The notes under the pieces were generated by a model. That model did not search any database. It was not told the origin of the DNA and saw only the letters and a list, made by a program, of their open reading frames with translations. The position numbers and the translations under genes are program-made. This document shows positions 1-39,474 of a stretch of 64,000 bases of DNA, piece by piece; within the stretch, counting starts at the first letter, position 1, and the number at the start of each line of letters is the position of its first letter. Source of the stretch: Escherichia coli (GTDB lineage: Bacteria; Pseudomonadota; Gammaproteobacteria; Enterobacterales; Enterobacteriaceae); the NCBI RefSeq assembly GCF_046105845.1, contig NZ_CP151004.1. One strand, given 5' to 3'.

Positions 1-276
1 AAACAGGATTGCGCCGATCATCAGGCTCTTTTTGCGCCCGAGTTTAAAGGAGAGCCAGCCGCTGCCCACCGCACCGACTGCCGCACCGAACATCATGGAG
101 CTTACGACCCATTCTTGCGTGTGCGAAGTAATCTGGAATTCATCTGCAATAAACGGCAGTGCGCCAGCAATTACACCGATATCCAGGCCAAAGAGTAATC
201 CCGCCAGAGCGGCAAGGAAGCAGACGAAAAACGTCATTGCCTTGTTTGACCGCCCCTGTTTTTTAGCGTCAGGCAT
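1..276 (-). CDS. galP: Galactose:H+ symporter GalP, N-terminal 92 codons (gene continues beyond window start)
   Basis: Reverse-strand translation from ATG at 274-276 reads [32 protein letters not shown]..., the sugar-transporter N-terminus; in frame to position 1. Not in ORF track because it is truncated by the window edge. Confidence 0.9.
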
Positions 277-339
277 GATGCCCTCCAATATGGTTATTTT
301 TTATTGTGAATTAAGATAGGTGAGTACGACGTAAAAAGA

Positions 340-355
340 TGTGAAGCAAATCACA
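340..355. promoter_or_regulatory. CRP-binding site, perfect TGTGA-N6-TCACA core, upstream of galP
   Basis: Sequence tgtgaagcaaatcaca at 340-355, 64-79 nt upstream of the galP start codon. Confidence 0.55.
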
Positions 356-358
356 TCA

Positions 359-374
359 GTGTAATCGCTTACAC
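359..374. promoter_or_regulatory. GalR/GalS operator upstream of galP
   Basis: Sequence gtgtaatcgcttacac matches the 16-bp GalR/GalS operator consensus GTGnAAnCGnTTnCAC at every constrained position. Confidence 0.6.
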
Positions 375-622
375 TAACATTTATCTTGGTTATGATTTAA
401 GTGCATGAAAATAATTGAGTTATATCATCATAGATTAAACGCTGTTATCTGCAATTAAGACTTTACTGAAAAGAAATGTAACAACTGTGAAAGCTGAATA
501 ATAATATGAAAATATTACAAATATTTGGCTGGCGTGGTTGGTGTAATCGGTTTCAGTAGTGATGGTAATTTGCGGTAAAACGTGTTGAGGAAGAATGATG
601 TTATTGTGCGGGCGGTTTTTTT

Positions 623-660: not shown

Positions 661-693
661 TAAAAGAAAAAGGCCAGCGCGAGGCTGGCCTTT
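661..693 (-). terminator. Intrinsic terminator of metK
   Basis: GC-rich hairpin ggccagc/gctggcc (672-690) followed on the minus strand by a T-run, immediately 3' of the metK stop. Confidence 0.7.
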
Positions 694-712: not shown

Positions 713-1867
713 TTACTTCAGACCGGCAGCATCACGCAGCAGCTGCGCTTTGTCGGTTTTTTCCCACGGGAAATGTTCACGACCAAAGTGACCGTATGCT
801 GCGGTTTCTTTGTAGATCGGGTGCAGCAGATCCAGCATCTGAATCAGACCGTATGGGCGCAGGTCGAAGAATTCACGTACCAGCAGAGTCAGTTGTTCAG
901 AAGGCACTTTCTCAGTACCGAAAGTTTCTACCATGATGGAAGTCGGTTCAGCCACGCCGATTGCGTAGGAAACCTGAATTTCACAACGATCGGCCAGGCC
1001 AGCAGCAACGATGTTTTTCGCGACATAACGTGCTGCGTAGGCTGCGGAACGGTCCACTTTTGATGGATCTTTACCAGAGAATGCACCGCCACCGTGACGC
1101 GCCATGCCGCCGTAGGTATCAACGATAATTTTACGACCAGTCAGACCGCAGTCACCCATCGGGCCACCGATAACAAAACGACCGGTCGGGTTGATGAAGA
1201 ATTTGGTGGCAGAAGTCAGCCATTCAGCCGGCAGAATCGGCTTGATGATCTCTTCCATTACCGCTTCTTGCAGCGATTTCTGGTCGATTTCTTCAGAGTG
1301 CTGAGTGGAAAGCACGACAGCATCGATACCAACGATTTTGCCGTCGTCATACTGGAAAGTCACCTGGCTTTTCGCGTCCGGGCGCAGCCACGGCAGAGTG
1401 CCGTTTTTACGCACTTCAGCCTGACGCTGTACCAGACGGTGTGCATAGGTGATAGGCGCTGGCATCAGCACGTCGGTTTCATTGGTTGCGTAGCCAAACA
1501 TCAGACCCTGGTCACCCGCGCCCTGTTCCAGCGGATCGGCACGGTCAACGCCCTGGTTGATGTCAGGAGACTGTTTACCGATGGCGCTCAGAACCGCACA
1601 GGAGTTAGCGTCAAAGCCCATGTCGGAATGTACATAGCCAATTTCGCGAACGGTGTTACGGGTGATCTCTTCGATGTCTACCCAGGCGCTGGTGGTGATT
1701 TCGCCGCCAACTAAAACCATGCCGGTTTTTACGTAGGTTTCGCAAGCAACGCGTGCTTTCGGATCCTGTTCGAGGATCGCGTCTAAAACGGCATCAGAGA
1801 TTTGGTCAGCAATTTTGTCAGGATGCCCTTCAGAGACGGACTCGGACGTAAAAAGGTGTTTTGCCAT
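713..1867 (-). CDS. metK: S-adenosylmethionine synthetase
   Basis: ORF 713..1879; product recognised from [29 protein letters not shown]...; start trimmed to the Met giving 384 aa. Confidence 0.97.
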
Positions 1868-1907
1868 ATTTAATATCACCTAAAGAGAATTTGGTTAGCT
1901 CAAACTG

Positions 1908-10627: not shown

Positions 10628-10967
10628 ATGAGGTGAGGAGAAAATAGCCGACAGGTGAGAATTCAGAATCTATAAAGGGGTATAGCGAAAAAACATTGCA
10701 TTAAAAAAGTATGTTTTCGGACATTCAATAAATAAATGGCGATATGCATCACAAATACAACAACAATCAAAATGTTGATTTTGTGACAAACATAACAAAT
10801 ACAAAATTGACTTTAAAAATATCAATTTCATGTTGTTGTTATTTAAAGTTTTATTATTTTTGTTCATGGGGTTTTTCTTCTCGCGTACCCAATTGCTTTC
10901 ATTAAACCGCACGAGTATTTTATTTTTACCGCCGGACGGTACCCTAAAAATAAAATAAGGATAATTT
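10628..10967. promoter_or_regulatory. Very AT-rich intergenic region carrying the divergent promoters of the SPFH gene and cmtBA
   Basis: About 340 bp with long A/T tracts and short repeats (caaatacaa twice); a partial CRP-like tgtgacaaacataaca motif. Confidence 0.4.
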
Positions 10968-39027: not shown

Positions 39028-39474
39028 AAATTTCTCATCTGTTGTTTATTTGATACCCATCACACTTTCATCTCCCGGTTTTTTCGCCGGGAGATTTTCC
39101 TCATTTGAAATAAACTAATTTCACCTCCGTTTTCGCATTATATTTTCTAATGTCATGATTTTTTGATTTAGTGTTTTTTGACAATTTTTTAGTTCTTAAT
39201 ATTGCATTAATCAAATTAACTTTCTCATCTGTTTATCTTTATATAGAGATTTGTTCATTTTTTGGTTTTTTATTCTGTTGTGATTTTGGCGTTTTTTAAC
39301 CATAAGCTAATGTGATGATCAATTTTACCTTATGGTTAACAGTCTGTTTCGGTGGTAAGTTCAGGCAAAAGAGAACGATTGCGTTGGGGACCGGGAGTGG
39401 CTCCGATGCTGGGTTTCGTGGTGATAATTTCGCCATGGAAAAGTTGTCAGCCCCGCTTATTCAATGAGGACAAG
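39028..39474. promoter_or_regulatory. Long AT-rich regulatory region upstream of the gcvTHP operon
   Basis: 447-bp non-coding stretch with multiple A/T tracts; the gcv operon is known to be controlled by GcvA/GcvR, Lrp, PurR and CRP. Individual sites not mapped here. Confidence 0.5.

Follow-up and report, generated by a model that had tools for sequence, protein, structure and literature searches.

Positions 340–374 of the window, the whole 64-kb stretch of the Escherichia coli chromosome that was analysed, carry two adjoining motifs, which are the characterised cAMP-CRP activator site and the main GalR/GalS repressor operator of galP, both already known and curated. Taken together, the region is very probably the control region that subjects galP to AND-gate control by cAMP and D-galactose, with CRP in a class II position and GalR blocking the activation. 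The first-pass annotation, a tool-free reading of the raw sequence, had correctly recognised this textbook regulatory module, and no new biology is involved. The modest addition made here is that the GalR–CRP–(-10) register is held constant to the base pair throughout the Enterobacteriaceae and at three gal-regulon promoters, while a few genera are rewired. Glucose uptake in PTS-deficient production strains is usually achieved through changes in galR, galS, nagC and the galP promoter.

Locus and Correspondence to K-12

The motifs fall in the metK–galP intergenic region. The first 720 bases of the window match 5,425 of the 5,426 complete E. coli genomes, with the best match (99.6%) in a B2-like E. 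coli, and RefSeq annotations of metK and galP lie under this match in the 5,425 genomes. The metK gene (713–1879, minus strand) is co-oriented with galP and located upstream of it; the A of the galP ATG is at position 276 on the minus strand, and the first 92 codons of galP are contained in the window. On its upstream side, the galP control region is bounded by the metK intrinsic terminator, and the sequence GGAGGG, which includes the Shine-Dalgarno element, is kept in orthologous galP loci. The coordinates of all features are collected in Table 1.

Table 1. Features of the metK–galP intergenic region and its flanks, in window coordinates
Feature	Position	Strand	Basis
galP 5' part (galactose:H+ symporter)	1..276	-	translation, RefSeq annotation, K-12 b2943 identity over the aligned start
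Shine-Dalgarno GGAGG	282..286	-	read from the sequence; 5 nt upstream of the galP ATG
NagC operator cttaattcacaataaaaaataac	293..315	-	exact match to the galP NagC site in PMC3098098; overlaps the -10 element and the start
PgalP transcription start (predicted)	305	-	derived from curated operator positions, within about 1 nt
-10 hexamer TATCTT	313..318	-	-13 to -8 from the start; TAnnnT conserved in orthologues
cAMP-CRP site, core TGTGA-N6-TCACA	340..355		exact core match, PWM, ChIP-seq listing, SELEX target
Proximal GalR/GalS operator	359..374		0 mismatches; centre 366.5 = -61.5; OI(galP) in PMC5110547, BS2 in PMC9189660
Distal GalR/GalS operator GTGTAATCGGTTTCAG	541..556		2 mismatches; centre 548.5 = -243.5; OE(galP) / BS1
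metK intrinsic terminator	669..693	-	10-bp stem, 6 G-C pairs, T run; directly after the metK stop codon

The K-12 RefSeq record contains CDS only and no regulatory features. The window and K-12 MG1655 are identical in alignment from the galP ATG to about -115 and align without indels up to about position 647, with window position x corresponding to K-12 position 3,088,560 - x. The two sequences represent the same locus, and the GalR operator, CRP site and NagC site are identical to the published K-12 sequences. Compared with the K-12 galP promoter, this strain carries a few substitutions upstream of -115 and a 13-bp indel in a REP-like element near the metK terminator, both of which leave the sites untouched. 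The REP-like element (gccggatgcggcgtgaa...) is found at about 621–660, with the metK terminator on one side and the galP control region on the other, and its 13 extra bases relative to K-12 are in the cctcaccgcggtg region. An Rfam match over the REP/terminator region, obtained at a permissive threshold with a Brucella sRNA model, scored 19.8 bits versus a gathering score of 229 and was rejected as noise.

Sequence Properties of the CRP and GalR Sites

On the + strand, TGTGAAGCAAATCACA and GTGTAATCGCTTACAC are separated by a gap of 3 nt, i.e., tca at 356–358, and lie 64–79 nt and 83–98 nt, respectively, upstream of the galP ATG. The 64 kb contain no other exact match to either consensus, and each of the two is also the top PWM match, where the CRP matrix was derived from 106 published ChIP-seq site sequences excluding galP and the GalR matrix from 8 published operators excluding the proximal galP operator. 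The 35-nt composite pattern, with 3 mismatches allowed, gave no match in 100 shuffles.

With both strands considered, TGTGA-N6-TCACA has a single match in the window, compared with 0.09 expected from dinucleotide shuffles, and the site scores 16.4 bits, the highest in the window. Among the 107 ChIP-seq CRP site sequences it ranks 14th; a perfect 10-position core is present in 8 of these sites and a core with one mismatch in 39, while the flanks and N6 spacer of the galP site deviate from the extended 22-bp consensus. On the gene strand, the site reads TGTGATTTGCTTCACA, which is the MEME-predicted sequence of a high-confidence galP CRP ChIP-seq peak in ETEC H10407 (PMC4287617), and genomic SELEX also recovered galP as one of the known CRP targets (PMC3105977). 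The next-best matches to the CRP matrix in the window are TTTGATACCCATCACA at 39049–39064 (15.7 bits), TGTGACAAACATAACA at 10782–10797 (14.3 bits) and GGCGATATGCATCACA at 10738–10753 (13.0 bits).

For GalR, the dyad test GTGNAANC.GNTTNCAC with a central CG gave 0 mismatches in the proximal and 2 in the distal operator. The pattern GTGTAANCGNTTACAC, with up to 2 mismatches, matched twice in the window versus 0.08 expected, and none of 100 shuffles contained two matches. All 14 constrained positions of the proximal operator agree with the consensus, and the two operators take the first two ranks in the window with the GalR matrix (20.8 bits for the proximal and 17.9 bits for the distal one). They correspond to K-12 positions 3088186–3088201 and 3088004–3088019, respectively, which are the coordinates and sequences of the published galP operators (PMC5110547). 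Across the genome, no other site exceeds the proximal operator in GalR matrix score (25.15, with the next at 16.04) or in GalR ChIP-chip ratio (115.4, with galE at 78.1) (PMC5110547), and of the GalR sites measured it has the highest affinity (PMC9189660).

These results bear out most of what the first-pass annotation had proposed. The 3-nt spacing and the location 60–100 nt upstream of the galP ATG are confirmed by the coordinates (64–98 nt), and the sites themselves are upheld by both the matrix scans, in which each ranks first in the window, and the published record, as the operator is the published galP operator (PMC5110547) and the CRP sequence is a ChIP-seq site (PMC4287617). The catabolite and galactose control ascribed to galP likewise agrees with its published cAMP-CRP dependence and GalR inhibition (PMC4073488). 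The description of both sites as perfect consensus matches holds for the 10 core positions of CRP and the 14 constrained positions of GalR, but not for the CRP flanks and N6 spacer when the 22-bp consensus is applied. Similarly, the wording "unusually strong" is fully justified for GalR by its top genomic score and ChIP-chip ratio, whereas it suits the CRP site only moderately, given its rank of 14 among 107 and the 8 perfect cores in that set. The second GalR operator at 541–556, the NagC operator and the class II geometry common to galE P1 were absent from that annotation.

Core Promoter and Transcription Start

The curated positions of the galP operators are -61.5 and -243.5 (PMC9189660), and since the operator centres at 366.5 and 548.5 agree on the same origin, the start of PgalP is placed at 305. 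The CRP centre, at 347.5, would accordingly lie at -42.5, overlapping the -35 region. The start and the CRP position both rest on the operator positions quoted in PMC9189660 together with the conservation analysis, from which we infer a class II geometry for CRP at galP. The -10 hexamer begins 21 nt past the CRP core, and its T, A and final T are the most conserved bases of the stretch. A sigma-70 consensus scan detected no -35/-10 pair on the gene strand, which is expected of an activator-dependent promoter and fits the silence of PgalP in the absence of its activator: PgalP is inactive without cAMP-CRP (PMC4073488). A PgalP reporter has also been described as being under the control of cAMP, galactose and GalS (PMC2516365).

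Repression of galP by NagC has been documented (PMC3098098, PMC4288165 and PMC5401889, which cite El Qaidi 2009). Two sigma-70-like pairs on the + strand, at 368–396 and 478–505 (9/12 matches each), face the metK terminator rather than galP; the former overlaps the GalR operator. Both are probably noise, given that chance alone would yield about 0.9 such pairs in a stretch this AT-rich.

Conservation across Enterobacteriaceae

A species survey with full-length K-12 GalP as the query and one genome per species retrieved 80 galP loci from about 30 enterobacterial genera, with a GalP identity of 89–100% and usable upstream sequence in 79. A proximal operator (up to 2 mismatches, about 100 nt before the ATG) was present in 74 of the 79 loci and was perfect in 55. 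In all 74, the CRP core began exactly 19 nt downstream of the operator start (36 perfect cores, 35 with one mismatch and 3 with two); the surveyed species are phylogenetically related, and these counts are not independent events. An operator-like site 181–185 bp upstream of the proximal operator was detected in 70 of 73 orthologous loci, where the estimated chance of a site with up to 3 mismatches in the interval searched is about 0.004 per locus. Furthermore, TAnnnT occupies the position +56 from the operator start (56–61 nt after it) in 73 of 74 orthologous promoters.

In the operator-anchored alignment, the information content averages 1.91 bits per position for the constrained GalR positions and 1.80 for the CRP half-sites, versus 0.45 for the 3-nt gap, 0.51 for the CRP N6 spacer and 0.52 for the 40 nt upstream of the operator. 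The interspersed positions are poorly conserved, which shows that the species have diverged far enough for the conservation test to be meaningful. Judged from the alignment, this pattern is that of selection on protein contacts and not of general sequence conservation.

The CRP core shows some variation among lineages. At three loci of Raoultella and Klebsiella pneumoniae, the core at the conserved offset reads CGTGA-N6-TCACG, a symmetric change of both outermost bases, and in many other genera it carries a single change (CGTGA...TCACA).

A few lineages lack the arrangement. In Silvania confinis, Leclercia sp. 29361 and Silvania hatchlandensis, the 330 nt preceding galP contain neither the proximal GalR operator nor the CRP site; metK keeps its upstream position, and the sole operator-like site lies about 138 nt before the ATG, just past the metK terminator. 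The galP promoter thus appears to have been rewired in the Silvania/Leclercia lineage. In Enterobacter sp. ENT03 and kpr-6, the GalR operator GTGTAAGCGATTACAT comes directly after a consensus TTGACA and thus lies in the promoter spacer, about 77 nt from the ATG; no CRP site is found about 60–100 nt upstream of galP. This organization suggests a CRP-independent promoter of galP that would be occluded by its operator in these two genomes.

Related Promoters of the gal Regulon

A close counterpart of the galP arrangement is galE P1 of K-12, in which the operator OE (GTGTAAACGATTCCAC) is followed by 3 nt, the CRP core, 21 nt, TATGGT, 6 nt and the start, in a register identical to that of galP. The same proteins act at both promoters, with OE at -60.5 and CRP at -41.5 in galE P1. 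However, the two differ in several respects. Unlike its galP equivalent, the CRP site of galE possesses a single good half-site (TTTAT...TCACA); a second, CRP-independent promoter, P2, overlaps it; and the NagC operator is an additional element of galP. The partner operator of galE, OI, is located downstream (+53.5), and the loop encloses the promoters, whereas the galP partner operator is upstream (-243.5) and leaves the promoter outside any loop. Both galP operators are positioned upstream of the start rather than flanking the promoter as in the galE-type repressosome; therefore, a galE-type loop enclosing the promoter cannot form. What galP has in common with the galE arrangement is its proximal half alone.

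The K-12 mglB–galS region contains two further composites, at record positions 2240600–2240633 and 2241745–2241779. At mglB, a perfect CRP core, TGTGAGTGATTTCACA, follows the GalR operator after 2 nt, and at galS, TGTGACTCGATTCACG follows the operator after 3 nt. The operator-to-CRP offset of galS is thus 19 bp, as in galP, and that of mglB is 18 bp; contrary to the proximal operator of galP, the galS and mglB operators each have 2 mismatches to the consensus. GalS rather than GalR has been reported as the best binder of the galS site (PMC9189660). Based on these comparisons, the galP pair reads as one instance of a recurring GalR–CRP composite. The site named OE(galS) in PMC5110547 (2240618–2240633) is located upstream of mglB and overlaps the last codons of galS (CDS 2240628–2241668).

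Proposed Mechanism and Alternative Explanations

Published ChIP data place both CRP and GalR on these very sequences in vivo. GalR inhibits CRP-mediated activation at PgalP, where cAMP and galactose are both required, thereby constituting an AND gate (PMC4073488). GalS, which is itself activated by CRP, generates an incoherent feed-forward loop in which galP activity peaks at intermediate cAMP (PMC2516365). In the proposed mechanism, cAMP-CRP bound at 340–355, about 42 bp upstream of the start, would replace the missing -35 element and would recruit and activate RNA polymerase (class II activation). At 359–374 (-61.5), 1.5 to 2 helical turns upstream of CRP, GalR would bind, as would GalS though less strongly, and the two would block CRP-dependent activation, with D-galactose releasing the repressors. 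Extra repression would be contributed by the weaker operator 182 bp further upstream (541–556) and by the NagC operator over the -10/+1 region (293–315).

At class II promoters, the C-terminal domain of the polymerase alpha subunit reportedly docks just upstream of CRP, at about -62. GalR at -61.5 would occupy this docking position upstream of the class II CRP dimer, and repression would then be an anti-activation through contact or competition with the polymerase and not through displacement of CRP. Anti-activation through the polymerase is regarded as the most likely route because GalR sits at the position of the alpha C-terminal domain and because the spacing at galE P1 is identical; at galE P1, GalR is said to exert its effect via RNA polymerase, and CRP can be present on the DNA at the same time.

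The leading alternative is simple competition, in which bound GalR would sterically keep cAMP-CRP off the DNA, or vice versa, and the promoter would be silent for want of its activator. We consider it improbable, although the 3-nt gap is smaller than the CRP contact of about 22–28 bp requires, so that the footprints must touch, and a partial overlap of repressor and activator sites has been described at mglB, where the gap is 2 nt (PMC2516365). Mere overlap, however, would tolerate a variable spacing, whereas no deviation from the offset occurs in any of the 74 species; moreover, the same 19-bp offset is found at galE P1, where GalR reportedly works via the polymerase with CRP possibly bound. 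Going beyond anti-activation as such, the fixed 19-bp offset supports an arrangement that may be stereospecific. Since this offset recurs in all 74 species, at galE P1 and at galS, it is conceivable, and we suggest it only tentatively, that GalR and the CRP–polymerase complex form a stereospecific ternary anti-activation complex, in which the geometry is under selection and from which a few lineages have escaped, and not a generic roadblock. By comparison, functionless chance matches in AT-rich intergenic DNA have a negligible probability. Weak CRP-like sites are indeed generally frequent, with other PWM matches of 12–16 bits in the window, but only 0.09 CRP and 0.08 GalR matches are expected per window, and the explanation is ruled out by the shuffle controls (0 of 100 for the composite), the published ChIP data for CRP and GalR, and the site-specific conservation in 74 species.

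A separate question is whether the CRP palindrome has a second function on the gene strand. When extended by one pair and followed by TTTTT (338–357, - strand), it was flagged as terminator-like, with a 7-bp stem, 3 G-C pairs and 5 T. That the CRP palindrome also serves as an intrinsic terminator, halting metK read-through just before the galP promoter, is very unlikely. The flag is on the gene strand, the predicted fold has an energy of -9.3 kcal/mol (z = -3.1), the T run after the CRP site is moderately conserved, and metK is co-oriented upstream. However, a stem of 7 pairs with only 3 G-C is short, metK owns a strong terminator at 669–693, any palindromic protein site folds as a hairpin, and the T run partly matches the flank of the extended CRP consensus. 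The hairpin may be a by-product of the CRP palindrome or a weak stop to metK read-through.

Returning to GalR as a proposed anti-activator at PgalP, titration of GalR or GalS led to an apparent activation of the native PgalP reporter (PMC9189660). Hence, GalR bound at -61.5 may in some conditions do more than repress, by analogy with GalR at OE, which stimulates galE P2.
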